From the IMG/VR virus record IMGVR_UViG_2684623061_000001, positions 1,800-65,799 of that record: a stretch of DNA of 64,000 nt; one strand, written 5' to 3'. The notes below the pieces were generated by a model, which saw only the letters and a list, made by a program, of their open reading frames with translations, ran no database searches and had not been told where the DNA came from. The position numbers were made by a program, and so were the translations under genes. How positions within the stretch are numbered: the first letter of the stretch is position 1; each line of letters begins with the position of its first letter. Shown here one piece after another: positions 14,218 to 29,745 of this stretch. The stretch is from a virus (Duplodnaviria > Caudoviricetes).

Positions 14218-14233
14218 GGCATCGCTTAGTGAA

Positions 14234-14488: not shown

Positions 14489-14722
14489 CGGTCGCCTCCT
14501 CCAGAGCGTCGACCCATCTTCTCGCCGCACGACGACCCTTTGGCTACCGCTGGTCGGCAGGTGAATCAGTAGTGTGCCTTTGATGAGCAGGCCAGTGCTT
14601 TGTAGCTGGGCAAGCCGATGCGCTGAAGGTGCGGCTTGCAGGGTCAATAACTGACTTTATGGCGTTCTTTGCGCGGTACGTCCTCGTGATGACTAGTTTG
14701 TGTTGTCTCATCGAGTACGTGC

Positions 14723-14989
14723 CTATTGTATCTGCGAAGGCTTACGAAAGACTTCGTTCTTCAACCAGACCAGCCCGAACTCGTCAAATACTTCCGGGGC
14801 AGTTCTCTCGGGATTTCGTCGCGACAGCCACTTATAGCTCAGCACGACTTGCGCATGTGATTCCTGTAGAACCGAAATGCTCCAAGCTAAACGCAATCTC
14901 GAAAACGCGGCCAGTGCTATGTCGCTGAGCGGAAAAAATTCTAAAGCTGGACCAGTCGCGCGTAATAAGGTGACTACGTATAGTTTCAT
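14723..14989 (-). CDS. Small hypothetical protein (moron; paralog 1 of 3)
   Basis: GGGAG RBS; 88 aa MKLYVVTLLRA... Confidence 0.6.
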   Translation of the reverse strand: MKLYVVTLLRATGPALEFFPLSDIALAAFSRLRLAWSISVLQESHAQVVLSYKWLSRRNPERTAPEVFDEFGLVWLKNEVFRKPSQIQ

Positions 14990-15228
14990 GCTCCCCCCGG
15001 ATCGGATCGAGGCCATCGACAACCGGCCGCGGTATTGTCCCCCAACCGAGTTGACTTGGGAGCCGCGAGTTAGCTTATCGACCCGGCGCAGCAAAGCTGC
15101 AGAAGCACCACGATGTAGCCTCTGCGGCGCTGCGCATCCCCTGCGTCTTGCTCGCGCCCCCTCCCCCGCGCCAAGCCGGACGACGGCCCACTGAGGGTCA
15201 CTCGCTGCGCCGTGTGGCCGAAAATCGC

Positions 15229-15282
15229 GGGTCCTTCCCACAGCATAAACCGCACGGGGGGCCAAGCCGCAAAACCCCGCTA
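15229..15282 (+). other. Candidate cos site (cosQ/cosN-like)
   Basis: GGGTCCT (identical to lambda cosQ) followed by ACG-GGGGGCCAAGC-CGC-N7-CGCTA, echoing lambda ACG-GGGCGGCGACCT-CGC-N7-CGCTA. Confidence 0.6.
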
Positions 15283-15342
15283 GCGTCAATCTTTTCATTC
15301 GGGTTTGCAGTCCCTGCAACCCGGTTCGCATCCGGACATCCC

Positions 15343-16599
15343 TTGAGCCTTCAGATCGAACAGCGCCCGATCGAGGCGCTCATTCCGTTTGCGCGGAACG
15401 CAAGAACGCACTCCGATGCGCAGGTCGCGCAGATTGCGGCCAGCATCGTGGAGTTCGGTTGGACGAATCCGATCCTGGTCGATGGCACCAACGGCATCAT
15501 CGCCGGCCACGGTCGACTGCTGGCGGCACGCCAACTGGGACTCGCGCAGGTGCCGGTGATCGAGCTGGCTCACCTGACCCCGGCGCAGAAGCGGGCGTAC
15601 GTCATCGCCGACAACCGACTGGCTGAGAACGCAGGGTGGGACGAGGAATTGCTGAAGCTGGAACTGGCCGAGCTGCGCGATGCCGAGTTCGACCTGGACC
15701 TGCTCGGCTTTACGGAAGACGAGCTGGACGACCTGCTCCTCGACGACCAGGCCGGATTGACCGACGACGACGAAATTCCCGAGGTGCAGGACCAGCCGAT
15801 CTCGCGCCGCGGCGATCTCTGGATCTGCGGCGGTCACAAGGTGCTATGCGGCGACGCCACCAGCGCCGATGACTACGCTGCGTTGCTTGGCGATGAGCTA
15901 GTGGACATGACGTTCACCGACCCGCCTTACAACGTCGACTACGCCAACAACCCCAAGGACAAGCTGCGCGGCAAGCATCGTCCGATCCTCAACGACAACC
16001 TCGGTTCCGACTTCGGCGCCTTCCTGCAGGCCGCCTGCCAGCAGATCCTGACGGCGACCAAGGGCGCGGTCTACATGGCCATGTCGTCGTCAGAATTGGA
16101 CCGCCTGCAAGATGCCTTCCGCGCAGCGGGCGGTCGCTGGTCCACCTTCATCATCTGGGCCAAGAACAAGTTCACGATGGGGCATGCCGACTACCAGCGG
16201 CAGTACGAGCCCATCCTCTACGGCTGGCGCGACGGCAATGATCGGTTCTGGTGCGGCGCGCGCGACCAGGGCGACGTCTGGTTCATCGACCGCACCAGCA
16301 AGAACGACCTGCACCCGACTATGAAGCCGGTAGCGCTGATGGAGCGGGCTATTCGCAACAGCAGCAAGTCCCGCGATCTGATCCTCGATCCGTTCGGCGG
16401 CTCCGGAACGACGATGGTCGCCTGCGAGAAGACTGGTCGCCGCGCGCGATTGATCGAACTCGATCCGAAGTACGTCGATGTCATTGTCCGCCGCTGGCAA
16501 GATCACACGGGCCAGGCGGCCACCAGGCAATCGGATGGAGTCGTGTTCGAGGACGCCGCGCGCAATGATGAGGCCGAAGCCAAGACCGAGCTCGCATGA
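15343..16599 (+). CDS. ParB-N fused N6/N4 DNA methyltransferase
   Basis: IIAGHGRL ParB motif, TDPPY, HPTMKP, DPFGGSGT; TTG start inferred. Confidence 0.92.
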   Translation: MSLQIEQRPIEALIPFARNARTHSDAQVAQIAASIVEFGWTNPILVDGTNGIIAGHGRLLAARQLGLAQVPVIELAHLTPAQKRAYVIADNRLAENAGWDEELLKLELAELRDAEFDLDLLGFTEDELDDLLLDDQAGLTDDDEIPEVQDQPISRRGDLWICGGHKVLCGDATSADDYAALLGDELVDMTFTDPPYNVDYANNPKDKLRGKHRPILNDNLGSDFGAFLQAACQQILTATKGAVYMAMSSSELDRLQDAFRAAGGRWSTFIIWAKNKFTMGHADYQRQYEPILYGWRDGNDRFWCGARDQGDVWFIDRTSKNDLHPTMKPVALMERAIRNSSKSRDLILDPFGGSGTTMVACEKTGRRARLIELDPKYVDVIVRRWQDHTGQAATRQSDGVVFEDAARNDEAEAKTELA

Positions 16600-17636
16600 C
16601 ACGGCCGGCGTACTACAACGAGAATGATCTCTACCTGTGCGGTTGGCTCCGTAATCTCATTGCGGCCGACCTGATTCCCCCGGGCGACGTTGATGACCGA
16701 GACATCCGATCTGTTTCCGCAGACGACCTGCGCGGCTACGGCCAATGCCATTTCTTCGCCGGAATCGGCGGCTTCGCCTACGCCTGCCGGCTCGCGGGCT
16801 GGCCGGACGGCAAGGAAATCTGGACAGGCGGCTTCCCCTGCCAGCCGTTCAGCGTTGCAGGCCGCCAGCGCGCTCAAGCGGACGACCGCCACCTCTGGCC
16901 GGAACTGCGCCGCCTTGTTGCATCGGCGCGACCCGCTCTTTTCCTGGGTGAGAACGTTGCTGGCCTCATCCCGCTGGGGCTCGACGGAGTTCTGTCTGAT
17001 CTGGAAGCCGAAGGCTACGCCAGCCGGGCGATTGTTGTTCCAGCTTGCGCCGTCAACGCCCCGCACCGACGCGACCGCGTCTGGATCGTCGGTCGCCGTT
17101 TGGCCGACTGTGGTGGCGAACGACGACAACAAGAGCCCGGCGGCGCACCTCGCGATGATGCGCCGGATGCCAGGCGGGCCTCGTCAGGCGATCACCAGCT
17201 TGCAAGTCGCGGCGAAAGCGGTCTGGCCGACGGCGACGGCGAACGACGCAGAGAAGCGCGGCGACTTTGCGGCCGAGCGACGCAATGGCCTGCCGGGAGT
17301 GGCGAAGGCGGTGTGGAGTACGCCTCGGACGAGCGACGGCGAGAAGGGCGGCCCCAATCAACAGTTCGGCAGTGGGTCGACCCGACCGCTGACGGCGCAG
17401 GCAGTCTGGGCGACACCGACGGTGCGCGATCACAAAGACGCATCGAGCATTGGCAGCGCACCGGAGAATGGGATGCTTGGCAGACAAGTCAAACCCTCGC
17501 CGGTCGCCGGGTACCTGAATCCGGAATTCGTCTTCTGGCTGATGGGATATCCGCCCGAATTCCTAAGCTGCGCGCCGCCGGCAATTCGATCGTTCCGCCG
17601 GTTGCCGCCGAAATCCTCCGCGCCCTGCGCGGCTGA
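16596..17636 (+). CDS. C5 cytosine DNA methyltransferase, alpha polypeptide
   Basis: FFAGIGG (I), GFPCQPFS (IV), ENV (VI), HRRDRVW (VIII), GNSIVP (X); motif IX absent from this frame. Confidence 0.88.
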   Translation: MTRPAYYNENDLYLCGWLRNLIAADLIPPGDVDDRDIRSVSADDLRGYGQCHFFAGIGGFAYACRLAGWPDGKEIWTGGFPCQPFSVAGRQRAQADDRHLWPELRRLVASARPALFLGENVAGLIPLGLDGVLSDLEAEGYASRAIVVPACAVNAPHRRDRVWIVGRRLADCGGERRQQEPGGAPRDDAPDARRASSGDHQLASRGESGLADGDGERRREARRLCGRATQWPAGSGEGGVEYASDERRREGRPQSTVRQWVDPTADGAGSLGDTDGARSQRRIEHWQRTGEWDAWQTSQTLAGRRVPESGIRLLADGISARIPKLRAAGNSIVPPVAAEILRALRG

Positions 17637-17679
17637 CGCTGCGCTCGGATACGAAGTTGACGAGGGGGCTCCGTCTTAG
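16693..17679 (+). CDS. C5 methyltransferase beta polypeptide in the overlapping +1 frame (TRD repeats + motif IX)
   Basis: Four W-x-T-x-x-x-x-D modules and LNPEFVFWLMGYP; start uncertain. Confidence 0.75.
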   Translation: MTETSDLFPQTTCAATANAISSPESAASPTPAGSRAGRTARKSGQAASPASRSALQAASALKRTTATSGRNCAALLHRRDPLFSWVRTLLASSRWGSTEFCLIWKPKATPAGRLLFQLAPSTPRTDATASGSSVAVWPTVVANDDNKSPAAHLAMMRRMPGGPRQAITSLQVAAKAVWPTATANDAEKRGDFAAERRNGLPGVAKAVWSTPRTSDGEKGGPNQQFGSGSTRPLTAQAVWATPTVRDHKDASSIGSAPENGMLGRQVKPSPVAGYLNPEFVFWLMGYPPEFLSCAPPAIRSFRRLPPKSSAPCAADAALGYEVDEGAPS

Positions 17680-17993
17680 TCAGCGGCCAGCCCGATGTAG
17701 CGGGCATACTTGTAGCCGTCCGTGCGCACGTATAGCGTCGCGCGGCCGGGCGACCGAATCTCCATAGCGTCGGTGAAGATGCCGCAGAAGTCGGCTAGCC
17801 AGTCGCGGCCGCGAAGCGGTTGCTTGGCAAATGCGTCGTACTCGTCGGCAGTCAGCTCCTTCACCTCGACGATGCGAGCGAACTCGGCCGGCACGTTGGT
17901 ATCGCGCAGTTCCCGTTGAACCCAGGACAGGCTCTCGGCCTTGCGTGCGAATCGGACCTTCTGGATGCGGGGCTTGATGTGCGTGGTGATCAT
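17676..17993 (-). CDS. Hypothetical phage protein (cassette 1)
   Basis: VRFARK...ELTADEYDAF...LYVRTDGYKYARYIG; downstream of the repeated motif. Confidence 0.75.
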   Translation of the reverse strand: MITTHIKPRIQKVRFARKAESLSWVQRELRDTNVPAEFARIVEVKELTADEYDAFAKQPLRGRDWLADFCGIFTDAMEIRSPGRATLYVRTDGYKYARYIGLAAD

Positions 17994-18020
17994 GATGGTC
18001 TTCCGCAGTGGGCGTGCCGA

Positions 18021-18051
18021 CATGAACGCTTCCTTCCCAATGGAAGCCAAG
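18021..18051 (-). promoter_or_regulatory. 31-bp repeated promoter-like motif, copy a
   Basis: RC = CTTGGCTTCCATTGGGAAGGAAGCGTTCATG. Confidence 0.8.
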
Positions 18052-18160
18052 TGGAACATCGCCATTTCGAGCGAAAACCCGAAGCCGTTAAGGTGTCAGA
18101 CGAGAACGACCGTTCTCAACAATGGGCGCTGGATACGTGCTAGCCGGCGCGCTGCGCCGG

Positions 18161-18193
18161 AGACAAGAGAACCGCCGCGCTGAGCGCGGCGGT
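18161..18193 (-). terminator. Intrinsic terminator
   Basis: ACCGCCGCGC-TGA-GCGCGGCGGT stem with pyrimidine-rich tail on the minus strand. Confidence 0.6.
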
Positions 18194-18200
18194 GCAGGAG

Positions 18201-18482
18201 TTACGTGATCTCGTACTCGCCCGTGGTCCGGTTGCAACGAACTCGGACGGCGCTACGAATCGGCGTGTAGCAGTCGATCCACAAACTGAGGCGGTATACG
18301 TCGCGGTAGCTCACCGCATGTCGGGCTAGGACGTCGGTCAGACCGATGTCCAGCAGATACTGCGCCATCTCAGCGTCGGTGGACGACTCATCATTGGACA
18401 GGGCGTCCTCGACCACCACGAGAACGCGTTCGGGTAATGAAACGAGGACTGGGTCCGGCCCTTTGATGTCGTATAAGTGCAT
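18201..18482 (-). CDS. Hypothetical protein (cassette 2)
   Basis: GGAG RBS; LSNDESSTDAEM motif; its upstream motif (copy b) is interrupted by the IS. Confidence 0.75.
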   Translation of the reverse strand: MHLYDIKGPDPVLVSLPERVLVVVEDALSNDESSTDAEMAQYLLDIGLTDVLARHAVSYRDVYRLSLWIDCYTPIRSAVRVRCNRTTGEYEIT

Positions 18483-18517
18483 CGTTTGTCTCCGTCTTGG
18501 GGAGCCCATGAACGCTT

Positions 18518-19887
18518 TATATGGACGCTCCCCATTGAGCAAGACGTAGCAGTTCCGGCATGTCGGAGGGTTGCAGTTTTATATCCGGCCTGTCGTGCAG
18601 GCGGATGCTTGCTGGCCCTGATGGAATTCGCTGATTCGCGCCTCATTTCATTCAAGAGCTCTAGAGCCCTAGCGTTCATTCAGGCTTGGCGAATCACGGT
18701 CCTACCTGCATGCCATCGCTGTCACGTACTTGCGCAATCGAACTAGCCCTCCAGAAAGAAGGTGGTGTGCTACTAAATTATGCGATTTGACTTGCGTAAT
18801 CGGATCGATATCGACGCGCATGAGCCAATAGCGCCCAGATGGTGCGAGCGATCTTGTTAGCGATCGCCACCACCGCAACATTGAACGGCCGACGCTGGGC
18901 TATCTTGGCGGCCCACGTCGGAGTTTCACTTTGACGGAAGAGCAAGCTTCGCGCGCCGTGAATCAGCAATGTGCGCACGTAAGTGTCCCCCCGCTTGCTG
19001 ATGCCAAGCAGTTGCACCCTGCCGCCGGTGCCGACCTGTCGTGGTACCAATCCGAGCCAGGCAGAAAATTCCCGAGCGGACTTGAACGCTTGCACATTGC
19101 CCATCGTTGCGATTGCTGCAGTGGCAGTCAGCATGCCGACGCCGGGGATCTCTGAAATTCTCAGGCAAGCGTCGTCCTGGCGGAGCCATTGCTTCAAACG
19201 AGATTCGATCTCGCGGACCTGCACGTCAAGGCCGCGAATACGGGCATATTGATCTCGCAACGTTTCAATCAGCATTCCAGGAAGCCGGTCGCACAAGCGA
19301 GCTAGCGCGTCAGGGAGATGCTTGTTGAGCCCGGCGCGCTGCTTTGGCATGACCTCGCCATACTCGGTGAGTAGCCCGCGCAAGGCGTTGATCTGTGCCG
19401 TGCGAAACTTGACTAGCTGCTGGCGCATGCGATGCAGTGCCAAAATGGCCTGTTGCCCTTCAGTCTTGATGGCAACTGCTTTGACTCCAGGCTGTTGCAT
19501 GGCCGTCCAAATCGCGCGGGCGTCTGCGGCATCGTTCTTGTTTCCGTGCACGAACGCCTTGACCTGCTTGGCAGGCAGTAGCACCGCGCGGTGACCTAGT
19601 GCTATCAGCCTGCGCGCCCAATGCTGGGAACCCCCACAGGCCTCCATGCCGACGAAGCATGGCCGGCGGTTTGAAAAGTGATCAAGAAACTTCGCTCGCT
19701 TAAGTCGCAGATTCACTATCTCACCAGTGGATGGCTCCACCCAGTGAAGTTGAAATACGTTCTTGGCGATGTCGACACCTACAATCGTCGCGATGCTGGA
19801 CATGGCTCTGCTCCAAAGCATGGGAGGTTTGGTCTACCACGCCGACTGTTATCGGCACGGCAGGAGCGGGGAGCGTCCATCCCATTT
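18518..19887 (-). mobile_element. IS110-family (IS1111 group) element, copy 1, 1370 bp
   Basis: 13-bp subterminal IRs ATGGACGCTCCCC at 18521-18533 / 19868-19880; removing it restores motif copy b (CATGAACGCTT|CATACCAACGGAACATCAAG). Confidence 0.93.
18778..19821 (-). CDS. IS110-family DEDD recombinase/transposase
   Basis: VGVDIAK, MEAC, KNDAADA, IPGVG, LGLVP..TGG, GISKRG. Confidence 0.96.
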   Translation of the reverse strand: MLWSRAMSSIATIVGVDIAKNVFQLHWVEPSTGEIVNLRLKRAKFLDHFSNRRPCFVGMEACGGSQHWARRLIALGHRAVLLPAKQVKAFVHGNKNDAADARAIWTAMQQPGVKAVAIKTEGQQAILALHRMRQQLVKFRTAQINALRGLLTEYGEVMPKQRAGLNKHLPDALARLCDRLPGMLIETLRDQYARIRGLDVQVREIESRLKQWLRQDDACLRISEIPGVGMLTATAAIATMGNVQAFKSAREFSAWLGLVPRQVGTGGRVQLLGISKRGDTYVRTLLIHGARSLLFRQSETPTWAAKIAQRRPFNVAVVAIANKIARTIWALLAHARRYRSDYASQIA

Positions 19888-20366
19888 CATACCAACGGAA
19901 CATCAAGTGGCTTGTCCCGAATGGAACGAAGGAGATGATCCAAGTTGGTCAATGCGGCCATTCGTCGCTTATGGTCCATGCCAAAGAACCACGCGCCCAG
20001 TAGCGCCGCCGTCCCATCTTCGGATGGATATAGGAAGAGCGTCGGACGTTCCGGCGTGGTCACCGCGATAAAGCGTTTGCGTCCCTCTGCATCTATTCCG
20101 ACGTAACCGGGCGGAACGTGTACTTTTTCGGGCAAGCGGCGAAAAAACTCCTCGTACTGCTCCGAGCGCGTGTATTGGATCACCTCGCCAACCACAACAT
20201 CCTCATACCAATAGAAGTCCTCATCTGAAAGCATGAAGGGCCAGTGGAGGATGGTGGGCGGCGGCCTGCAGATCCGGAGCGTCAGCACCTGGCCGACGGA
20301 AATGTCGCGAATAGTAGATTCACGCTCTGCGAGGGCCTGTATGGCCCTCTTGGAATTCTTCTTCAT
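19887..20366 (-). CDS. Hypothetical protein
   Basis: 159-aa ORF with GGAG RBS. Confidence 0.55.
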   Translation of the reverse strand: MKKNSKRAIQALAERESTIRDISVGQVLTLRICRPPPTILHWPFMLSDEDFYWYEDVVVGEVIQYTRSEQYEEFFRRLPEKVHVPPGYVGIDAEGRKRFIAVTTPERPTLFLYPSEDGTAALLGAWFFGMDHKRRMAALTNLDHLLRSIRDKPLDVPLV

Positions 20367-20389
20367 GGCTTAGGTCTCCGAAAAGTGGC

Positions 20390-20416
20390 GGCGGCCGGAG
20401 ACGGCCTCCGGCCGCC
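20390..20416 (-). terminator. Hairpin / terminator after the DUF3489 gene
   Basis: GGCGGCCGGAG-N5-CTCCGGCCGCC. Confidence 0.55.
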
Positions 20417-20423
20417 AATCAGG

Positions 20424-21095
20424 TCACTCGGCCTCGTCGCTGCGGCCCGTGCGCTCGTTCTCGGCTTCGGCCCGCGCTTCGGTCTTGATCCAGTAGACGC
20501 GCTCTTCCTTGCCGTTCTTGTCGCTGGTCAGCTCGTAGCCCTTCTTTTTCAGGGCGCCGGCAAAGAAGCCCCGTACTGAGTGCTGCTGCCAGTTGGTCGC
20601 TTCCATCACCTCCTTGATGGTCACGCCCTGAGGGCGCAAGAGCAGCGCGACGACTTGGTCGACCCGGTTCTGCTCCCGCTTCTTCTGCGGGGCGGGGACT
20701 GCGGAGCGGGCGTCGCTGGCGGGGGCGGTTTCGGGCTCGCTGGTCTCGGTGTTCGATTGGGCAGGCTCATCGCCGGCCGGAAGTGTCGGGTCGTCGGTAT
20801 GGTCGGCTTCGGTATCAGCGCGAACTTCGGCCTCGATGTCGGCGTCTGCTTCAGAATCGGCATCGGCATCAGTGTCGCTGCTCGCTTGCGGCGGGGTGCG
20901 GCCAACCGCCTCGTAGCCGGCGGCGGTGAGCGCGTAGCCGGAGCCGTCAGCGGCAATCAGATCCTCGCGCAGCAGGCCACGCACCACCGCCGTGCGCGCA
21001 CCGCCGCCGAGGTTCTTCGGATAGTTCTCGATGCGGCCATCGGTTTGCGTGGCGAGCAGGATCAGGGCGCGCTGGCTGTCGGTAAGCTTGGTCAT
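20424..21095 (-). CDS. DUF3489 domain protein
   Basis: MTKLTDSQ..GGGARTAVV..LLLRPQGVTIKEVMEATNWQQHSVRGFFAGALKKKG; AAGGAG RBS. Confidence 0.9.
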   Translation of the reverse strand: MTKLTDSQRALILLATQTDGRIENYPKNLGGGARTAVVRGLLREDLIAADGSGYALTAAGYEAVGRTPPQASSDTDADADSEADADIEAEVRADTEADHTDDPTLPAGDEPAQSNTETSEPETAPASDARSAVPAPQKKREQNRVDQVVALLLRPQGVTIKEVMEATNWQQHSVRGFFAGALKKKGYELTSDKNGKEERVYWIKTEARAEAENERTGRSDEAE

Positions 21096-21166
21096 TGCAG
21101 TCTCCTTGGTAGGTGATGGGCGAATTCGGGTAAGCGCGCCCCACTGCTGCGGGGCGCGCGGGGTGT

Positions 21167-21397
21167 TCAGCTGATCAGGACTTCGCCAATGACGCTGCGC
21201 ACATCGATGTCGCGGCTGGCGATGGCCTGGATCACTTCGTCCGGAAGCTTCTGCAGGAAGAAGGTGGCGCGGCGCTCGATTTCGCGTTGCGCGATATCGC
21301 TCCAGTCTTGGAGCACCGCGAGTTGTGCCAGCGCCGAGCGGTTTCCTGTGTTCAGGCCGGCGAGATAGTCCTTCAGGATTTGTGTTTCGTCTCTCAT
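21167..21397 (-). CDS. Hypothetical protein (cassette 3)
   Basis: GGAGG RBS; downstream of motif copy c. Confidence 0.7.
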   Translation of the reverse strand: MRDETQILKDYLAGLNTGNRSALAQLAVLQDWSDIAQREIERRATFFLQKLPDEVIQAIASRDIDVRSVIGEVLIS

Positions 21398-21430
21398 GTG
21401 TGGCCTCCGTGGCCGTCGTTGGTGTGGGGA

Positions 21431-21461
21431 CATGAACGCTTCCTTCCACCACGAAGCCAAG
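21431..21461 (-). promoter_or_regulatory. 31-bp repeated motif, copy c
   Basis: RC = CTTGGCTTCGTGGTGGAAGGAAGCGTTCATG. Confidence 0.8.
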
Positions 21462-21532
21462 CGAATACAGCGGAGAAGAATGAGCGTTCTTCATCGCGTA
21501 CAGCTGTTAGACACCTTCGGAACGCGGGAACA

Positions 21533-21554
21533 GAAAAGCGCCCCGTAGGGCGCT
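21533..21554 (-). terminator. Intrinsic terminator
   Basis: AGCGCCC-CGTA-GGGCGCT with U-tract on the minus strand. Confidence 0.65.
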
Positions 21555-21571
21555 CGGAGTGCTTCGGTAGA

Positions 21572-21970
21572 TCATTCGCCGCTGATAGCTGTCTTCGCGT
21601 GCTGAAGCCCCCGGCGTGCCAGCCGCAGGCCAATGCGGTACTCGGCATCGCGCGGGCTGGTTTGCAGGTGCTCATCTATGCCGCTGAGCATTTCCTCCAA
21701 ATTGGGCTCCGACGTCGACGCGCTCGCGTTGAGAAGGTTGAGAATCTCCGGAACATCGCGGGCAACATCTGCCAAGTACACTGCGTGGCCGCCGGTTTCG
21801 GCGAGCATCTCGACGATCGCGACGCTGTTCGCCACCAGCTCGGCGGCGGCCTCAAGCTCAGCGGCGAGCAGCGCGGCATCGCCTCCGGCGTTCAGGGCTT
21901 CGAGAGATGCGCGGCACTCTTTCAAAGCGACGATGGCGTTGCGAAATCGGAAGGTGTTGTTCGTGTTCAT
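21572..21970 (-). CDS. Hypothetical protein (cassette 4; RFRN family paralog)
   Basis: GGAG RBS; FRFRNAIVALKECRASLEAL resembles 23370-23627. Confidence 0.75.
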   Translation of the reverse strand: MNTNNTFRFRNAIVALKECRASLEALNAGGDAALLAAELEAAAELVANSVAIVEMLAETGGHAVYLADVARDVPEILNLLNASASTSEPNLEEMLSGIDEHLQTSPRDAEYRIGLRLARRGLQHAKTAISGE

Positions 21971-22002
21971 GCTGGTCTCCGTGGGTGTCGTTGGTGTGGG
22001 GA

Positions 22003-22033
22003 CATGAACGCTTCCTTCCGCGCCGAAGCCAAG
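22003..22033 (-). promoter_or_regulatory. 31-bp repeated motif, copy d
   Basis: RC = CTTGGCTTCGGCGCGGAAGGAAGCGTTCATG. Confidence 0.8.
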
Positions 22034-22102
22034 CGAATAGAGCGACTAAGAACGAGCGTTCTCCAACGCGTACAGCTGCCAGACAACTTCATCGAACGCG
22101 CA

Positions 22103-22127
22103 GAAAAGCAGCGCCCCGAAGGGCGCT
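22103..22127 (-). terminator. Intrinsic terminator
   Basis: AGCGCCC-CGAA-GGGCGCT, near-copy of the one at 21537. Confidence 0.6.
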
Positions 22128-22143
22128 TCGCGAGCGACGCAGA

Positions 22144-22539
22144 TCAGAGGATTCGGCGCTGCAAGATGGCCGTCGGGATCAGCTCCGTGCGTGCGCGGTC
22201 CGCTTCCCAGCGATTCCCAAGCAGGGATTTTTCGGGGATGGGCGCGGTGAAGATGGTTCTGGCGCCGGGGGTGCTCGGGAATTCGCTCGTCCCGCCCTCA
22301 CCGAGCCATGTGTTGCCCACCATCGTGTGCCGCTCAGTCGGGAGCTCATCGTCGGGGGTGCCGCTGCCGTTGGCGGCGCGCGCGCAGGCGGCGTAGCCAG
22401 CCAAGTAGGCGGCGGTCAGCGCTGCCTTAATACCCCAAACTCCGACGCTGGGGAAATCCAGCGAATCGCTACCTTGTTCTTCCAAGGTTTCCACGTCGAG
22501 GTGCTACTGCGCGATGGTGGTAAAAAGTTCGATGTTCAT
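22144..22539 (-). pseudogene. DUF6900-like gene with an in-frame TAG at codon 12 (cassette 5)
   Basis: GGAGG RBS then MNIELFTTIAQ*HLDVETLEEQGSDSLDF; the paralog has Q at this position. Confidence 0.8.
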
Positions 22540-22572
22540 GTCGGCCTCCGTAGCCTTGCGTTGGTGTGGGGA

Positions 22573-22603
22573 CATGAACGCTTCCTTCTCCGACGAAGCC
22601 AAG
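22573..22603 (-). promoter_or_regulatory. 31-bp repeated motif, copy e
   Basis: RC = CTTGGCTTCGTCGGAGAAGGAAGCGTTCATG. Confidence 0.8.
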
Positions 22604-22669
22604 CAGATTCCGCGATAAAGAACGATCATTCTCGGACGTAGACAGGCGTCGGACAGCTACAGCGGGCAG

Positions 22670-22697
22670 AAACAAGAAACGCCCCCGTTTGGGGGCG
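22670..22697 (-). terminator. Intrinsic terminator
   Basis: CGCCCCC-GTTT-GGGGGCG followed by TTTCTTGTTT on the minus strand. Confidence 0.7.
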
Positions 22698-22725
22698 CAT
22701 CGGTCGCGCTTCGTGCGATTAGGTC

Positions 22726-23115
22726 TCAGGCGATTCGACGTTGCCGGATGGCGGTCGGAATGAGCACGTCGCAGGCCTTTCGCTCGGTCCAGTGGTACGC
22801 CAGCAGCTCGACCTCCGGGATTGGTAAGGTGACCACGGTCTCCGCCCGCTGGTCGAGCGACCAGTCGGTGGCTTCGCCTTCGCCGAGCCAGATGCCGCAT
22901 AGCATGGTGTGTCGCTCGGTGGTCAGCGCATCGGCGCTACTGCCGTTGGCCGCGCGTACCGCCGCCGCGTAACCCGCGAAGTAGGCGGCGGTCAGTGCGG
23001 CATCGATACCCCAAGCCGGAACGCTATGGAAGTCCAGGCTATCGTTGCCGCGAGTCTCTAGCGTCGCTACATCCAGATGCTGTTGCGCGATGGTGGTGAG
23101 CGTCTTCTTGTGCAT
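22726..23115 (-). CDS. DUF6900-like protein (cassette 6)
   Basis: TTIAQQHLDVATLETRGNDSLDFHSVPAWGIDAALTAAYFAG; GGAGG RBS. Confidence 0.82.
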   Translation of the reverse strand: MHKKTLTTIAQQHLDVATLETRGNDSLDFHSVPAWGIDAALTAAYFAGYAAAVRAANGSSADALTTERHTMLCGIWLGEGEATDWSLDQRAETVVTLPIPEVELLAYHWTERKACDVLIPTAIRQRRIA

Positions 23116-23149
23116 GACAGCCTCCGTGGCCGTGCGTGTTGGGTGCACG

Positions 23150-23180
23150 CATGAACCCTTCGATTCGGCCGGAAGCCAAG
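23150..23180 (-). promoter_or_regulatory. 31-bp repeated motif, copy f
   Basis: RC = CTTGGCTTCCGGCCGAATCGAAGGGTTCATG. Confidence 0.75.
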
Positions 23181-23300
23181 TGAACCCGTCGTCATATCCA
23201 GGTTTTCACCGTCGCCAGACAACCGCTGTACAGCTAAGGCCGGATGGTTGTCTGGAGGCTAAACAGAACGGAAGAGCATTCGTTCTTCTCGCGATAACAG

Positions 23301-23331
23301 CTTGGCTTCCAAACAGAAGGAAGCGTTCATG
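23301..23331 (+). promoter_or_regulatory. 31-bp repeated motif, copy g (divergent from f)
   Basis: CTTGGCTTCCAAACAGAAGGAAGCGTTCATG. Confidence 0.8.
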
Positions 23332-23369
23332 TCGTCGCCGCACCGACGCGGCGACGCCAAGGACACGAA

Positions 23370-23627
23370 ATGCCGAACCTGTCGTACTGCCGGTTTCGCA
23401 ACACGCTGGTCGATCTGAATGAGTGCCAATCGGCGCTGGAGTCGTTGATCCATGATGAGCCGCTGATCCCACTGTCCCGCGAGGAACTAGCCGCCGCGAA
23501 AGAACTGGCGAGGACTTGCTTGGGCATCGTTTACCTGTTGTGCGAGGCCGGCGGTGAAGAGATTGCCGACGAGCCGGACATGGCGAAACTGGTCGAGAAG
23601 TTCAATAGAGAAGCGGCTGCACCGTAA
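23370..23627 (+). CDS. Hypothetical protein (cassette 7; RFRN family)
   Basis: AAGGA RBS; MPNLSYCRFRNTLVDLNEC. Confidence 0.78.
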   Translation: MPNLSYCRFRNTLVDLNECQSALESLIHDEPLIPLSREELAAAKELARTCLGIVYLLCEAGGEEIADEPDMAKLVEKFNREAAAP

Positions 23628-23643
23628 GCCCGGAAGAATGAAG

Positions 23644-23680
23644 ACCCCAGCGCCCACAGGGTGCTGGGGTATTCGTTCTT
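23644..23680 (+). terminator. Intrinsic terminator
   Basis: ACCCCAGCGCCC-ACA-GGGTGCTGGGGT then ATTCGTTCTT. Confidence 0.65.
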
Positions 23681-23746
23681 CCAAAACGTCGATCAGCCGC
23701 TTCCTGTCCGTCCGCTGTCTCGTCCCCGAGTTCTGCAGAGAAGTCG

Positions 23747-23777
23747 CTTGGCTTTGTCCCGAACGGAAGCGTTCATG
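23747..23777 (+). promoter_or_regulatory. 31-bp repeated motif, copy h
   Basis: CTTGGCTTTGTCCCGAACGGAAGCGTTCATG. Confidence 0.8.
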
Positions 23778-23815
23778 ACGACGCCGCATCGTCGCGGCTC
23801 GAAAAGGACAATGCC

Positions 23816-24346
23816 ATGAACAATAATGCGGCCTTCGCCGAAGCACAGCTGCGCAGCTTGAGCGATTGTTTGGAACGGGTACTGCTGTCCATCACGCCGG
23901 ATGAGGAAGCCGAGAACTGCCTGACGCTCTTCGCCTGCTACGGCCTCGCCAGCGTCCTCGCCGAACGCACCATCACGTTCCGGACCAACCGCCTCGGCGG
24001 CGATGTCCTTGAGCGGTTGGTGGAAGGTTGTCGGCAGGAGTTGGCCCCGCTGGAGTGGGGTGGCGATAAGGCGAAGGGCAGGTTGGCGAAGCGCCTCGTG
24101 CCAAGCGAAATCAGCGAAGACGAGATGACCCTGCGCTGGTTGCTCTCGACTATCGAGCGGTACCTCGAAGGACTTGAGCCGGAGTATGTGGCGCTTCCGG
24201 TGCATCAACTCCGGCGCGCGGTACGCGACGTCCGATTGATGCAGGTCTGGGATGTGATCGATGCCGGGTACCAGCCCAAGTTGAGGTTGGCCTTGCGTCA
24301 CTTGGAAAGTGCGATCGTGGGTGCGGAGTGCGCCCCGCGAAACTGA
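23816..24346 (+). CDS. Hypothetical helical protein (cassette 8)
   Basis: AAGGA RBS, 176 aa. Confidence 0.7.
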   Translation: MNNNAAFAEAQLRSLSDCLERVLLSITPDEEAENCLTLFACYGLASVLAERTITFRTNRLGGDVLERLVEGCRQELAPLEWGGDKAKGRLAKRLVPSEISEDEMTLRWLLSTIERYLEGLEPEYVALPVHQLRRAVRDVRLMQVWDVIDAGYQPKLRLALRHLESAIVGAECAPRN

Positions 24347-24456
24347 TCTCGCAGAAACGCTCGAAAAGCGCTTGGCTTCTGCTTGGAATGAAATGGGATG
24401 GACGCTCCCCGCTCCTGCCGTGCCGATAACAGTCGGCGTGGTAGACCAAACCTCCC

Positions 24457-25500
24457 ATGCTTTGGAGCAGAGCCATGTCCAGCATCGCGACGATTGTAGG
24501 TGTCGACATCGCCAAGAACGTATTTCAACTTCACTGGGTGGAGCCATCCACTGGTGAGATAGTGAATCTGCGACTTAAGCGAGCGAAGTTTCTTGATCAC
24601 TTTTCAAACCGCCGGCCATGCTTCGTCGGCATGGAGGCCTGTGGGGGTTCCCAGCATTGGGCGCGCAGGCTGATAGCACTAGGTCACCGCGCGGTGCTAC
24701 TGCCTGCCAAGCAGGTCAAGGCGTTCGTGCACGGAAACAAGAACGATGCCGCAGACGCCCGCGCGATTTGGACGGCCATGCAACAGCCTGGAGTCAAAGC
24801 AGTTGCCATCAAGACTGAAGGGCAACAGGCCATTTTGGCACTGCATCGCATGCGCCAGCAGCTAGTCAAGTTTCGCACGGCACAGATCAACGCCTTGCGC
24901 GGGCTACTCACCGAGTATGGCGAGGTCATGCCAAAGCAGCGCGCCGGGCTCAACAAGCATCTCCCTGACGCGCTAGCTCGCTTGTGCGACCGGCTTCCTG
25001 GAATGCTGATTGAAACGTTGCGAGATCAATATGCCCGTATTCGCGGCCTTGACGTGCAGGTCCGCGAGATCGAATCTCGTTTGAAGCAATGGCTCCGCCA
25101 GGACGACGCTTGCCTGAGAATTTCAGAGATCCCCGGCGTCGGCATGCTGACTGCCACTGCAGCAATCGCAACGATGGGCAATGTGCAAGCGTTCAAGTCC
25201 GCTCGGGAATTTTCTGCCTGGCTCGGATTGGTACCACGACAGGTCGGCACCGGCGGCAGGGTGCAACTGCTTGGCATCAGCAAGCGGGGGGACACTTACG
25301 TGCGCACATTGCTGATTCACGGCGCGCGAAGCTTGCTCTTCCGTCAAAGTGAAACTCCGACGTGGGCCGCCAAGATAGCCCAGCGTCGGCCGTTCAATGT
25401 TGCGGTGGTGGCGATCGCTAACAAGATCGCTCGCACCATCTGGGCGCTATTGGCTCATGCGCGTCGATATCGATCCGATTACGCAAGTCAAATCGCATAA
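24457..25500 (+). CDS. IS110-family DEDD recombinase/transposase
   Basis: Protein identical to 18778-19821. Confidence 0.96.
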   Translation: MLWSRAMSSIATIVGVDIAKNVFQLHWVEPSTGEIVNLRLKRAKFLDHFSNRRPCFVGMEACGGSQHWARRLIALGHRAVLLPAKQVKAFVHGNKNDAADARAIWTAMQQPGVKAVAIKTEGQQAILALHRMRQQLVKFRTAQINALRGLLTEYGEVMPKQRAGLNKHLPDALARLCDRLPGMLIETLRDQYARIRGLDVQVREIESRLKQWLRQDDACLRISEIPGVGMLTATAAIATMGNVQAFKSAREFSAWLGLVPRQVGTGGRVQLLGISKRGDTYVRTLLIHGARSLLFRQSETPTWAAKIAQRRPFNVAVVAIANKIARTIWALLAHARRYRSDYASQIA

Positions 25501-25539
25501 TTTAGTAGCACACCACCTTCTTTCTGGAGGGCTAGTTCG

Positions 25540-25745
25540 ATTGCGCAAGTACGTGACAGCGATGGCATGCAGGTAGGACCGTGATTCGCCAAGCCTGAAT
25601 GAACGCTAGGGCTCTAGAGCTCTTGAATGAAATGAGGCGCGAATCAGCGAATTCCATCAGGGCCAGCAGGCATCCGCCTGCACGACAGGCCGGATATAAA
25701 ACTGCAACCCTCCGACATGCCGGAACTGCTACGTCTTGCTCAATG
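25540..25745 (+). ncRNA. Predicted bridge/seek RNA of the IS1111 element (ends approximate; second copy on the minus strand at ~18533-18738)
   Basis: Long non-coding right end; stem TGATTCGC/GCGAATCA encloses ATGAACGCT and GAATGAA (target matches); ATTCCAT and ATATAAAA match the circle junction. Confidence 0.78.
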
Positions 25746-25768
25746 GGGAGCGTCCATATAAAGCGTTC

Positions 25769-26050
25769 ATGTCGTCGCCGCAACAACGCGGCGCAACGAG
25801 GAGCGCAGAACGGGACTTTCGCAGCACGGCTAAGCAGTTGGAGCGATTCGAGGTCTCCCTGCATGATTTACTGCACTGGGACGACACCTTGCAGCTGGAG
25901 TTGGACGACCTATTGGCGGCGCGAACAATGGCGTCTAGTTGCTGGGCAATCGTGAAGATGCTGTGCGAGCACGCGCGCATTGAACTGCCGAGCGAACCCG
26001 ATTGGTTTGCGATTCTGGACGAGGTCAACGAGGCGGCGGCGGTTCCCTAA
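25769..26050 (+). CDS. Hypothetical protein (cassette 9; RFRN family paralog), start uncertain
   Basis: DFRSTAKQL...AARTMASSCWAIVKMLCE..EPDW..NEAAAVP aligns with 23370-23627. Confidence 0.6.
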   Translation: MSSPQQRGATRSAERDFRSTAKQLERFEVSLHDLLHWDDTLQLELDDLLAARTMASSCWAIVKMLCEHARIELPSEPDWFAILDEVNEAAAVP

Positions 26051-26709: not shown

Positions 26710-29700
26710 TTGTACGACGGCTTCGACCACGTTGAGAAGGCGTGGCGCGATGGCCTGACGCCCGATCCGTTTCTGGACGTGTCCGATTGGGCGGACCGCG
26801 ACCGGGTGCTGTCGAGCACCTCGTCCTCGGAGCCGGGTCGCTGGCGAACCGCGCGCACGCCGTACTTGCGCGACATCATGAACGACCTGTCGCCGGCTTC
26901 GGCGACCGAGCGCGTCGTGTTCATGAAGGGCGCGCAGGTCGGCGGTCCGCTGGCGCTGGATACCCCGCTGCCGACGCCGTCGGGTTGGATAACGATGGGC
27001 GAAGTGCAAGTCGGAGACGCCTTGTTCGATGAGCAGGGTTGGCCCTGCCGGGTCGTCGGCGTGTCGCCGGTCTACGTCGACCGCGAGTGCTTCGAGATCG
27101 AGTTCGACGACGGCGAACGGATCGTTTGCGACGCCGAGCATCGCTGGCCGACCCTGGATTTCACCACGGACGCGCCGCGTCGAAAGACCCTGCGGACGGG
27201 GCAGATGGTGGGGCGAACCCAACTTGGGGGTAGCCCGCGCCGACGCTTCGGCATCGACAACGGCGGCGCACTGGCCCTGCCGGAGCGCGATTACCCGGTG
27301 CATCCCTACCTTCTCGGGCTCTGGCTGGGCGATGGCAACGCCTGGATGAACCACCTGTCGGTGCACGAGGACGATCGCGAAGTCGTCGAGCACCTGGCCG
27401 ACTGCGGCGTCCGGGCATTGTTTCGGCTTCCGCACTGGCGCAAGGGCAAGTGCGCCAATGTCGTGATCGACCCAGTCTACGCAGTGGACCAGTCCGGCCA
27501 GGCACCGGCCAGCTGCGGCACCTCTTTGTTCTCGGTGCGGCTGCGGCAGCTGAACTTGATCGACAACAAGCATCTCCCAGCTGCTTACCTGCGCGGCGGG
27601 CACGAACAACGTCTGGCCCTGGTGCAGGGGCTGATGGACAGCGACGGGTCGATCACGCCGGACGGCAAGCGCTGCGAGTTCAGCAATACGAATTCGCGCC
27701 TGGTGGAGGGCATGGTCGAGCTGCTGCGCAGCCTGGGCTACAAGCCCGCGGTCTATCACCACGAGGCCAAGACCCCGAAGCGCGCGGACGGTCGGCAGCG
27801 ACCTTGCGCCGCGGGTTGGCGGGTGTCGTGGACGGCCTACGCCGAGGAGCCGATGTTTCGGCTGTCCCGCAAGCGGGCACGAATGCGCCCGCGCAGTGCC
27901 GGCCGCCCCGGCCGCGCGCTGCGTCGCCGCATTGTTGCGATCCGTCCGGTGCCATCGGTCCCGGTGCGTTGCATTGAGGTCGACACGCCCAGCCACCTCT
28001 ATCTGTGCGGGAAGGGATTCATCCCGACCCACAACACCGAGTGCGGCAACAACTGGATCGGCTACGTCATCGCGTGCGCGCCCGGGCCGATGATGGCCGT
28101 GGCGCCCACGGTCGAGATGGCCAAGCGCAACTCGAAACAGCGCATCGACCCGCTGATCGAGGAGTCGCCGTCGCTGCGTGAGCGCATCGCGCCCTCGCGC
28201 GCGCGGGACGCCGGCAACACGATCCTGGCCAAGGAGTTCCGCGGCGGCGTCCTGGTTCTGACGGGTGCGAACAGCGCGGTCGGCCTGCGCTCGATGCCGG
28301 TGCGGTATTTGTTTCTGGACGAAGTGGATGGCTACCCGCGCGACGTAGAGGGCGAAGGCGATGCGGTCGCGCTGGCTGAGGCCCGCACCCGTACCTTCAC
28401 CCGCCGCAAGATTCTGTTGGTGTCGACGCCGACGATTGCCGGCGCCAGCACCATCGAGCGCGAGTACCTGGCCTCCGACCAGCGTCGCTACTTTGTGCCG
28501 TGTCCACACTGCGCCCATGCGCAATGGCTCCGGTTCGAGCAGCTGCGCTGGACCTGGGGCGACCCACGCTCGGCGCGCTACATCTGCGAGTCCTGCGAGC
28601 AGCCCATCGGCGAGCACCACAAGACCGCGATGCTGGCGGACGGCCGATGGGTCGCCACGGCGCCACAAAACCGCGGCAAGACGGCCGGTTACCACCTCTC
28701 ATCGTTGTACTCGCCGGTCGGCTGGCGCAGTTGGGCCGACATCGCCGCCGCATGGGAAACCGCGCAGGGATCGGCGACGGCGCTGAAAGCGTTCAAGAAC
28801 ACCGAGTTGGGCGAGACGTGGGAGGAGGAAGGCGAGGCCCCGGACTGGGAGCGCTTGCTGGAACGACGCGAGGACTACCGCATCGGCACCGTGCCGGCGG
28901 GCGGCCTGTTGCTGGCCGGCGGCGCCGACATTCAGAAGGACCGAATCGAGGTATCGGTGTGGGCCTTCGGCCGTGGCCGGGAGACGTGGCTGGTCGAGCA
29001 CCGCGTGTTGATGGGCGATACCGCCCGCGCTGCGGTCTGGAATGAGCTGGGCGCCATCTTGTCGGAGCAGTGGACCCACGCGAGTGGCGCGCTGCTGCCG
29101 CTGACCCGCCTGGGCCTGGACACCGGATTCGCGACGCAGGAGGCCTATGCCTTCGCGCGCGGCGTCAACGACCCACGCCTGCTGCCAATGAAGGGCGTCG
29201 GCAGCGGGGCGGCGCTCATTGGCACCCCGACCGCGGTCGACGTCAGCGTGCCGGGCAAGCGGTTGCGGCGGGGGCTGAAGCTGTTCGCCATTGCGGGCGG
29301 CATCGCCAAACTGGAGTTCTACAACGCCCTGCGACTGTCGATCGAGATCGGCCCGGACGGACAGCCGGCATTCCCGCCCGGCTATGTCCACCTGCCGAAG
29401 ATCGATGGCGAGTTTCTGCAGCAGCTGACCGCCGAACACCTGATCACCCGCCGCGACCGCCACGGCTATCCGCAGCGCGTGTGGGAGAAGCGCCGCGACC
29501 GCAACGAAGCCTTGGACTGCTACGTCATGGCACGCGCTGCGGCGATGCAGGCGGGCGTCGATCGCTTCGAAGAGCGGCATTGGCGCGAGCTGGAGCGAAC
29601 GCTCGGCATCGAGATCGGCCCGCCGCCCCTGCCACCAGCCCCGCCGTCTTATCCCACACCACAGGCCGCCCCATCGGGCGGCCTTTCCGTTTCTGGACCC

Positions 29701-29745
29701 GCGCGCCGTGGGCGCCGAGTCATTCCGAGCCGTTTCATGCGATGA
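26710..29745 (+). CDS. Terminase large subunit (lambda gpA family) with intein
   Basis: WRTARTPY, KGAQVGG|T, LFLDEVD, STPT, CPHC, GADIQ, RNEALDC. Confidence 0.95.
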   Translation: MYDGFDHVEKAWRDGLTPDPFLDVSDWADRDRVLSSTSSSEPGRWRTARTPYLRDIMNDLSPASATERVVFMKGAQVGGPLALDTPLPTPSGWITMGEVQVGDALFDEQGWPCRVVGVSPVYVDRECFEIEFDDGERIVCDAEHRWPTLDFTTDAPRRKTLRTGQMVGRTQLGGSPRRRFGIDNGGALALPERDYPVHPYLLGLWLGDGNAWMNHLSVHEDDREVVEHLADCGVRALFRLPHWRKGKCANVVIDPVYAVDQSGQAPASCGTSLFSVRLRQLNLIDNKHLPAAYLRGGHEQRLALVQGLMDSDGSITPDGKRCEFSNTNSRLVEGMVELLRSLGYKPAVYHHEAKTPKRADGRQRPCAAGWRVSWTAYAEEPMFRLSRKRARMRPRSAGRPGRALRRRIVAIRPVPSVPVRCIEVDTPSHLYLCGKGFIPTHNTECGNNWIGYVIACAPGPMMAVAPTVEMAKRNSKQRIDPLIEESPSLRERIAPSRARDAGNTILAKEFRGGVLVLTGANSAVGLRSMPVRYLFLDEVDGYPRDVEGEGDAVALAEARTRTFTRRKILLVSTPTIAGASTIEREYLASDQRRYFVPCPHCAHAQWLRFEQLRWTWGDPRSARYICESCEQPIGEHHKTAMLADGRWVATAPQNRGKTAGYHLSSLYSPVGWRSWADIAAAWETAQGSATALKAFKNTELGETWEEEGEAPDWERLLERREDYRIGTVPAGGLLLAGGADIQKDRIEVSVWAFGRGRETWLVEHRVLMGDTARAAVWNELGAILSEQWTHASGALLPLTRLGLDTGFATQEAYAFARGVNDPRLLPMKGVGSGAALIGTPTAVDVSVPGKRLRRGLKLFAIAGGIAKLEFYNALRLSIEIGPDGQPAFPPGYVHLPKIDGEFLQQLTAEHLITRRDRHGYPQRVWEKRRDRNEALDCYVMARAAAMQAGVDRFEERHWRELERTLGIEIGPPPLPPAPPSYPTPQAAPSGGLSVSGPARRGRRVIPSRFMR
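26947..28035 (+). mobile_element. Class 3 intein with LAGLIDADG homing endonuclease (363 aa)
   Basis: Starts P-LALDTP, ends PTHN before Thr+1; WCT triad (AEHRW, VRCIEV, PTHN); LLGLWLGDG and VQGLMDSDG. Confidence 0.88.

Follow-up and report, generated by a model that had tools for sequence, protein, structure and literature searches.

An IS1111-family insertion sequence with a putative guide RNA matching a motif repeated in one group of prophages

Two almost identical copies of an insertion sequence (IS) of the IS1111 family interrupt a short repeated motif at exactly the same base in a 64,000-nucleotide stretch of DNA from a tailed phage (Duplodnaviria; Caudoviricetes), positions 1,800 to 65,799 of the record IMGVR_UViG_2684623061_000001. 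This stretch, which is referred to as the window in the following, is part of a 65.8-kb provirus record in IMG/VR. The non-coding region that follows the transposase gene of the element very probably specifies an RNA of the seekRNA/bridge RNA type that would choose the target of the IS, and this target is, as far as its occurrence in the collections searched can tell, a motif specific to one prophage group.

Two insertions at the same base of a repeated motif

A repeat search returned a single pair of inverted repeats in the window (18507-19895 / 24383-25771). Together with the reading of the junctions and with empty orthologous sites in related prophages, it delimits IS copy 1 to 18518..19885 on the minus strand (empty site in L088) and IS copy 2 to 24393..25760 on the plus strand (empty sites in L082, L079 and L084), each of them 1368 bp long when the core is excluded. 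The junctions of both copies can be written as ..(A/T)ATG-AA-[ATGGGATGGACGCTCCCC ... GGGGAGCGTCCATATA]-AA-GCGTTCATG. In the orientation of the element, copy 1 is embedded as ..GGTATG-AA-[IS]-AA-GCGTTCATGGGC and copy 2 as ..GGAATG-AA-[IS]-AA-GCGTTCATGTCG. The core dinucleotide AA occupies positions 24391..24392 (left) and 25761-25762 (right) on the plus strand for copy 2 and 19886-19887 and 18516-18517 on the minus strand for copy 1. Each copy splits its motif into an upstream half, CTTGGCTTCTGCTTGGAATG for copy 2 (24371..24390, plus strand) and CTTGATGTTCCGTTGGTATG for copy 1 (19888..19907, minus strand), and a downstream half, located at 25761-25771 (AAGCGTTCATG, plus strand) and 18507-18517 (minus strand), respectively. 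Relative to the motif, both copies face the same way, their transposase genes being co-directional with the respective downstream genes, and they are inverted in window coordinates only because the two interrupted motif copies reside on opposite strands.

For a comparison with uninterrupted sites, 150 nt of each IS flank were used in BLAST searches against 26 motif-bearing stretches of other IMG/VR contigs. The flanks of copy 1 were found in the IS-free L088 with 100% (left) and 98% (right) identity and precisely AA in between. Precisely AA also joined the flanks of copy 2 in L082, L079 and L084, where they were matched at 83-93% and 86-87% identity (93% and 87% in L082). As the empty sites contain AA only once, the element proper comprises 1368 bp, and AA is single in the target and present at both junctions; the length of 1370 bp given in an earlier reading of the window that was made from the sequence alone (the sequence-only reading) holds if one AA is counted. 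The other statements of that reading on the insertions, namely their location at the identical base, their common orientation relative to the motif and the AA at both junctions, were confirmed by junctions and empty sites alike. The ATG in front of the core is derived from the target and not carried by the IS, the same cassettes reading ATG in IS-free relatives.

The two copies are identical at 1367 of 1368 positions. The sole difference, G versus A at 25669 (equivalent to 18609, T on the plus strand), is indeed situated in the non-coding 3′ end, where it had been noticed before; by our reading, the G to A exchange of copy 1 affects a stem within the donor portion of the putative RNA described below. 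Both downstream open reading frames (ORFs) are intact and the copies differ by one base, and the insertions are therefore presumably recent. Homologous or IS-mediated recombination between inverted copies 4.5 kb apart could invert the segment 19886-24392; as the order of the motifs is the same as in the IS-free L088, no such inversion has occurred here.

The element is a new member of the IS1111 family

The element belongs to the IS1111 family and exhibits every family feature that could be tested. Its transposase gene (24475..25500, plus strand, in copy 2; equivalently 18778-19803, minus strand, in copy 1) encodes a protein of 341 amino acids, or of 347 amino acids when translation is taken to start at the upstream ATG at 24457. 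The protein is a DEDD transposase with matches to Pfam PF01548 (1.9e-13) in its N-terminal and to PF02371 (1.3e-20) in its C-terminal part, and the sequence GLVPRQVGTG at residue 251 corresponds to the IS1111 motif GL-P----S(t)G. Perfect subterminal inverted repeats of 13 bp are found 5 nt from the left end (ATGGACGCTCCCC, 24398..24410, plus strand) and 3 nt from the right end (GGGGAGCGTCCAT, 25745-25757, plus strand), and the non-coding sequence after the transposase gene amounts to 260 nt versus 64-82 nt before it. Protein and repeats thus fall within the ranges that characterize the family (330-350 amino acids; 7-17 bp with short terminal extensions). The GL-P----S(t)G motif, subterminal repeats and a longer non-coding region 3′ of the transposase gene are given as marks of IS1111 elements in the available part of PMC11187229, and the accessible text of PMC11208160 assigns an RNA in the right end and long subterminal repeats to the IS1111 group. 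The original assignment as an IS1111-type, site-specific element that causes no target duplication beyond the shared AA is thus borne out by family features and empty sites. A joint of abutted ends, indicative of a circular form, was not seen in the contigs of the sequencing runs considered further below, which cannot show its absence.

An identical 341-amino acid protein is present on one 5.9-Mb contig in a database of 5.8 billion proteins, in which the next best match is 72% identical. The closest relatives share 68% of their amino acids with the transposase when one genome per species is considered and 72-74% when metagenome contigs are considered. No other copy of the IS was found in IMG/VR, megablast of the IS against a phage collection gave no match, and megablast against a plasmid collection revealed no full copy. 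The sole part of the IS with matches in the plasmid collection is the RNA region (25548-25716, query positions 1156-1324), which is about 81% identical to sequences on four Bradyrhizobium plasmids; no annotated feature lies under these matches.

A putative guide RNA carries the addresses of target and donor

The seekRNA/bridge RNA region is predicted at 25553..25705 (plus strand) in copy 2, within the 260-nt non-coding stretch after the transposase stop codon, and equivalently at about 18573-18725 (minus strand) in copy 1. The layout after the stop codon is AAGCCTG-[AATGAACGCTA]-GGGCTCTAGAGCTC-[TTGAATG]-AAATGAGG, with the two guide segments given in brackets. The first of these (25598..25608, plus strand), which we term the T guide, has the sequence AATGAACGCTA, whose reverse complement, (A)GCGTTCAT, forms the right target half on the top strand; written as RNA, AAUGAACGC, the segment is complementary to GCGTTCAT. 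The second segment, the B guide (25623..25637, plus strand), consists of TTGAATG followed by AAATGAGG and contains GAATG-AA-ATG, which is exactly the left junction, made up of the last five nucleotides of the left target half, then the core and three nucleotides from the start of the IS. Further downstream, a donor-matching segment (GGATATAAAACTGC, 25692..25705, plus strand) includes ATATA-A, the right IS end plus the core. Since the donor segment and the target segments share the core, the RNA would carry both the target and the donor address in a manner resembling a bridge RNA. The arrangement agrees with that described for IS1111 seekRNAs, in which, according to the available part of PMC11187229, the match to the top strand is located 5′ of the match to the bottom strand and the two overlap at the insertion point. 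The sequence-only reading had missed this source of specificity, which is encoded in the very non-coding end where it had noticed the single difference.

The relatives of the element provide the strongest argument for a guide function. Among 115 relatives with a complete 3′ end, 64 keep the same scaffold with differing sequences in both guide brackets, and in about 50 relatives the guide sequences track the flanks of their own element. When 40 distinct T guides were compared with the right flank of their own element, the longest exact match had a median length of 6 of the 9 variable nucleotides; with the flanks of other elements the mean was 2.9. The 23 distinct B guides agree with their own left flank at 6.2 of 8 positions on average and with those of other elements at 3.05. 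The ATA or ACA of the donor segment corresponds to the right IS end in all relatives for which the comparison could be made (28/28). The core base agrees among the target loop, the donor loop and both junctions of the relatives (31/31, 28/28 and 17/17), and that in the target loop is the same as that in the donor segment in each of 31 relatives. RNAalifold, applied to 23 sequences, yielded 28 base pairs, 12 of which show compensatory changes, and in the fold of the single sequence both guide brackets lie in the same internal loop, at the top of which there is a hairpin.

Some observations weigh against this interpretation. The energy of the single-sequence fold is ordinary (z = -1.38), and 15 out of 200 shuffled sequences fold as well. 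Searches of Rfam gave no bridge or seekRNA match and only two chance miRNA-like matches below the threshold. Among the sequencing runs listed for the IS sequence, none is an RNA run. We infer that the RNA is made and used by the element.

In the mechanism that we propose, the 5′ guide segment AAUGAACGC would pair with the right target half, GCGTTCAT, on the top strand, while the 3′ segment GAAUG-AA-AUG, which equals the top-strand sequence of left half, core and first IS bases, would pair with the bottom strand. The second part of the RNA would hold the right IS end together with the core (AUAUA-A). The junction of a circular IS form would then recombine with the target at the shared AA, such that the IS comes to lie between ..GAATG-AA and GCGTTCATG without any duplication beyond the core. 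The prophage motif CTTG-N16-AAGCGTTCATG would supply a 15-nt address, and the AUG next to the core in the guide would lead to a preference for ATG copies of the motif over the commoner AGG copies.

The target motif is repeated in one group of prophages

The motif can be described as CTTG..N..|AA|GCGTTCATG, where the vertical bars enclose the core. With up to one mismatch, AAGCGTTCATG occurs 12 times in the window versus 1.27 expected occurrences, and none of 100 shuffled sequences reached 12. These matches comprise nine motif copies, two sites inside the transposase genes and one unrelated site (28787). Beside the two occupied copies there are seven empty ones. Those on the minus strand are located at 18021..18051 (..GAAGG|AAGCGTTCATG), 21431..21461, 22003..22033 and 22573..22603 (all GAAGG) and, in a diverged form, at 23150..23180 (AATCG|AAGGGTTCATG), and those on the plus strand at 23301..23331 (GAAGG) and 23747..23777 (AACGG), so that the motif copies form two divergent series that meet near 23.2 kb. 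In 93-95 distinct uninterrupted copies, conservation extends beyond the 11-mer used for the search and includes CTTG at positions -20 to -17, T at -13, A at -4 and G at -1.

The 11-mer is present 7 and 11 times in two related proviruses, in which its reversed control is absent, and in two bacterial genomes it stays at the level of the control (6 versus 7 and 3 versus 2 occurrences). The full motif was detected in only one out of 401 genomes of one bacterial family, and it is this distribution that suggests its restriction to a single prophage group. That single motif (G099:C16:28052-28082) is an uninterrupted GAATG variant (CTTGGCTTCCCGGCGGAATGAAGCGTTCATG). A distant search of the cassette array that contains the motifs against a phage collection gave only short unrelated matches with about 2% coverage. 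The earlier proposal of an IS specialized for a conserved family of prophage promoters therefore stands as far as the target motif repeated in one prophage group is concerned, whereas a promoter scan did not call the motif.

Our best guess is that the motif is a promoter or another 5′ control element, from which the insertion detaches the gene. The elements TTGGCT-N17-GTTCAT have the spacing of a sigma-70-type promoter (16-18 nt) and the TTG is nearly invariant; the putative -10 region lacks A at position 2, and a consensus scan made no call. A serious, if less probable, alternative is that the motif, rather than being a promoter, belongs to a short conserved leader peptide (M-S-(S)-P-H/Q-x-R-R) and comprises its ribosome-binding site and its start codon, in which case the IS would cut between the Shine-Dalgarno-like GGAAGG and the ATG. 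The spacing in GGAAGGAAGCGTTC-ATG is Shine-Dalgarno-like, the ATG of the motif opens ORFs of 88-115 amino acids or leaders of 12-37 amino acids, one of which overlaps the next start codon as ATGA, and by our reading the leader codons differ synonymously between copies (CCA/CCG, CAC/CAT). On the other hand, the best-conserved upstream bases are CTTG at -20 to -17 and T at -13 and the Shine-Dalgarno-like stretch is less conserved, several copies have a better Shine-Dalgarno sequence (GGAGG) with an ATG about 40 nt further downstream, and the terminator-like hairpin before each unit is in keeping with independent transcription units, each requiring a promoter. Control element and leader are compatible readings.

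Further details of the motif surroundings deserve mention. The 12-amino acid leader that starts with the motif ATG at 22005 ends in ATGA at 21967-21970, overlapping the start of a 132-amino acid ORF (21572-21970), which suggests a potential translational coupling; at the neighboring copy (21431), leader and ORF are fused in frame. In one class of copies the motif ATG is followed by a strong inverted repeat of the type GTCGCCGC..GCGGCGAC (23329-23365, 23775-23810 and 25769-25800; also in loci L071-L096). The copies in L075 have CCAG..CTGG at the same place, an apparently compensatory exchange as judged by eye, and the repeat may be a stem-loop at the 5′ end of the transcript. A second recurring element, TGTC-N8-10-CTGT(A/C), was spotted by eye about 45-60 nt upstream of several motif copies (around 21480-21500, 22050-22070, 22620-22640 and 23200-23290) and may be an operator common to the cassette units.

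Probable discrimination between ATG and AGG copies of the motif

The bases in front of AA are AGG in five, CGG in one and TCG in one of the seven empty copies and ATG in both occupied ones, and the census of the nine motif copies thus upheld what had been stated about them from the sequence alone. The T guide agrees with each of the nine copies at 8 of 9 positions, except for one with 7 of 9. As it matches all copies alike, discrimination would only be possible via the B guide, which reads GAAUG next to the core. The site of copy 2 (GAATG) agrees with it at all five B positions and that of copy 1 (GTATG) at four of five, with the mismatch at -4. The five empty GAAGG copies also reach four of five, with the mismatch at -2, and the two other empty copies reach two of five.

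Evidence for insertion elsewhere came from metagenomes. A sediment metagenome (runs X1 and X2) contains the IS at about 98-99% identity. The left flank of the IS in X1 is CTTGGCTTC-CACCGAGAATG-AA, found on one contig (..CCGGCTTGGCTTCCACCGA then GAATG-AA), and the right flank, GCGTTCATGTGGCC.., is found on another contig that runs into GCGTTCATGTGGCCACACCACAACGGCCAC. The insertion is at the same position, after GAATG, in a motif copy that is absent from the window, and a further site of the predicted form GAATG-AA-GCGTTCAT within a prophage motif has thereby been seen again. The runs X3 and X4 contain no IS junction; the pieces in X3 are short conserved parts, and X4 has pieces of the IS plus one uninterrupted AAG variant of the motif.

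On this basis we consider a guide-based preference for ATG copies over AGG copies fairly probable and infer that the latter are discriminated against. ATG directly precedes the core at all three left junctions (GTATG for copy 1, GAATG for copy 2 and GAATG for X1), and the guide itself reads AUG at the positions in question. By our own arithmetic, the chance that two random insertions both hit only the two ATG variants among the nine copies of the window is 1/36. As no more than 14 of 95 uninterrupted motif copies read ATG, three of three left junctions with ATG would arise by chance with a probability of about 0.005 (again our arithmetic). What speaks against such a preference is, in the first place, that the site of copy 1 and the unoccupied GAAGG sites tie at four of five B positions and only the position of the mismatch differs (-4 versus -2). 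In addition, 3 of 23 relatives (L003, L005 and L171) occupy sites with a mismatch at -2, and mismatches at this position would thus not be absolutely excluded. The sample comprises two insertions in the window and, from metagenomes, one or two junctions that are located on separate contigs, and the right junction in X1 is one A shorter than in the window. Finally, the check for copies in unrelated targets covered the runs X1-X4, and copies in other targets may exist; the identical transposase is known from one 5.9-Mb contig.

It is accordingly conceivable, albeit unlikely, that the exclusive occupancy of ATG copies is a sampling accident and that the IS uses any copy including AGG, its guide tolerating a single mismatch. 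The very small number of insertions, the equal match of the copy 1 site and the GAAGG sites, the relatives with mismatches at -2 and the equal match of the T guide to the motif copies would all be in line with this explanation; the uniform ATG at the three left junctions, its rarity among uninterrupted copies and the AUG of the guide argue against it. The ATG-only rule of the sequence-only reading thus has a mechanistic counterpart in a mismatch directly beside the crossover; the number of matches by itself fails to set the site of copy 1 apart from the empty ones, and some relatives occupy sites mismatched at -2.

Targets across the IS clade and recognition by the protein

Guide-target pairs for the clade were drawn from loci L003-L176. 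In 48 distinct pairs, the triplet opposite the first three guide bases (25598-25600 in the window) is ATG in 31 and TTG in 7 cases. The G of this triplet stands opposite a guide A in 34 of the 48 pairs and is therefore not specified by pairing. The left target halves in the clade are often purine-rich (GGAG, GAGG, GGGA), and the targets can be summarized as a purine-rich stretch, A, 5-7 nt and NTG. This suggests that the unspecified G of NTG is either a base read by the protein or reflects a preference for gene starts. Evidence for the latter is weak. Of 50 distinct targets, 36 are accompanied by an ATG no more than 16 nt away, which opens an ORF of at least 50 amino acids in 18 of the 36 cases, compared with 36% of 4052 control ATGs.

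These observations also bear on the question of whether the transposase protein alone recognizes the motif, for instance as a folded palindrome similar to attC or repetitive extragenic palindromic (REP) sites, with the matches in the non-coding region being incidental. An imperfect dyad is present in the motif (CGCTT..CTTCC / GGAAG..AAGCG), and the TG that is shared by the targets of the clade and unspecified by the guide hints at read-out by protein. We nevertheless regard this explanation as very improbable, because the guides covary with the flanks across dozens of relatives with the same protein scaffold. The reading of the motif as a folded attC/REP-type hairpin was rejected: its variable positions show no hairpin covariation and pair no better than shuffled sequences do, apart from a weak signal at one pair (22/1000). 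Moreover, experiments on four IS1111 members have proven the seekRNA essential and reprogrammable, as described in the available text of PMC11187229. A scenario in which a single IS was copied along with its motif, by duplication or recombination, would accord with the near identity of the two copies and their inverted arrangement 4.5 kb apart but is highly improbable. The identity ends at the motif, beyond which the flanks belong to different cassettes, and both flank pairs have separate uninterrupted orthologues, joined by exactly AA, in IS-free prophages. Order and orientation of the motif copies agree with L088 according to our reading of the positions.

The prophage, its cassette genes and the effects of insertion

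The host prophages are a siphovirus-type group. In the window, a serine integrase gene (809-2458) is followed by genes for a Sak4-like protein and then a primase and by a ParB-methyltransferase gene (15148-16599). The cassette region (17.6-26 kb) is situated between this replication module and the terminase gene, after which portal, major head and tape-measure genes are found. The ORF for the large terminase subunit (26710-29745) encodes 1011 amino acids, of which residues 442-1005 give the main PHROG match and residues 8-80 and 70-484 match other terminase families; a fusion, a duplication or an ORF that was called too long could account for this.

Most motif copies come after a terminator-like hairpin, and each precedes a small gene of unassigned function. 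Searches of the cassette proteins against PHROGs and Pfam returned only families of unknown function (phrog_2555, 10315, 21303, DUF3489 and DUF6900), and no sigma factor or activator was recognized among the ten early ORFs that were scanned. The genes downstream of the two IS copies are both intact and without a family match; they encode 102 amino acids (18201..18509, minus strand, copy 1) and 93 amino acids (25769..26050, plus strand, copy 2). The IS sits 9 nt 5′ of the motif ATG, and 1370 bp lie between the CTTG..N11 part and AAGCGTTCATG. The 102- and 93-amino acid genes would lose their native control if the motif acts as a promoter or as a ribosome-binding site with start codon. A candidate outward promoter at the right IS end (TTGCTC-N15-TATAAA, found by eye) was not called by a consensus scan and is left as speculation.

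Relation to known systems and biological meaning

Several characterized elements resemble the one described here. ISPa11, an IS1111 member that targets the REP sequences of Pseudomonas aeruginosa, shares the DEDD transposase, the subterminal repeats, a downstream seekRNA and the T match located 5′ of the B match, and both elements hit a short sequence that is repeated many times per genome (PMC11187229, available part). The target of our element differs in being a motif confined to one prophage group and not a chromosomal REP, and the guide segments differ as well. An IS110-family transposase of P. aeruginosa is 68% identical to the transposase in the window. ISKpn4, ISPst6 and ISPa25 of the IS1111-attC type share seekRNA-directed, site- and orientation-specific insertion into an element that separates gene cassettes (same source, to the same extent). 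In contrast to their target, the motif is not attC, there is no integron, and the cassettes are prophage transcription units with terminators of their own. IS621 of the IS110 group likewise uses one RNA with target- and donor-matching segments that share the core base; its RNA is located in the left end, whereas here it would be located in the right end in combination with long subterminal repeats, as for the IS1111 group (PMC11208160, accessible text).

The available part of PMC11187229 names REP, attC, Tn21-type ends and short linear sites as natural targets, and the word 'phage' is absent from that source. A literature search covering titles and the beginnings of abstracts found no phage motif named as a target of such an IS. 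The element is uncatalogued and new by any usual threshold; what is new is the element itself and its phage-restricted address, and the mechanism is already known. One study, cited in PMC11208160, reportedly deals with an IS whose target lies on another mobile element and which travels with that element. Compared with an IS that targets a transposon, the vehicle here is a temperate phage, which offers 7 to 11 copies of the target instead of two.

A more far-reaching interpretation, which we offer as speculation and consider rather doubtful in its full extent, is that the guide has evolved to read a control element exclusive to one lineage of temperate phages and present 7 to 11 times per genome. 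The phage would then be both habitat and vehicle for the IS, each hop would uncouple one accessory cassette gene, the guide would single out the minority of ATG variants, and the G of NTG in the clade would hint at protein read-out or a preference for gene starts.

Within 8 kb, the window combines both guide segments, a donor segment, exact empty sites and near-cognate decoys and thus represents a worked natural example. The seven decoy copies differ mainly at one guide position and constitute a ready-made test for the specificity of an IS1111 seekRNA next to the core. For phage biology, the analysis brings to light an element that precedes many small cassette genes and is both conserved and phage-specific. 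A control motif of temperate phages would be added to REP, attC, transposon ends and short linear sites as natural targets, and an IS with a phage as its niche would be a rarity.

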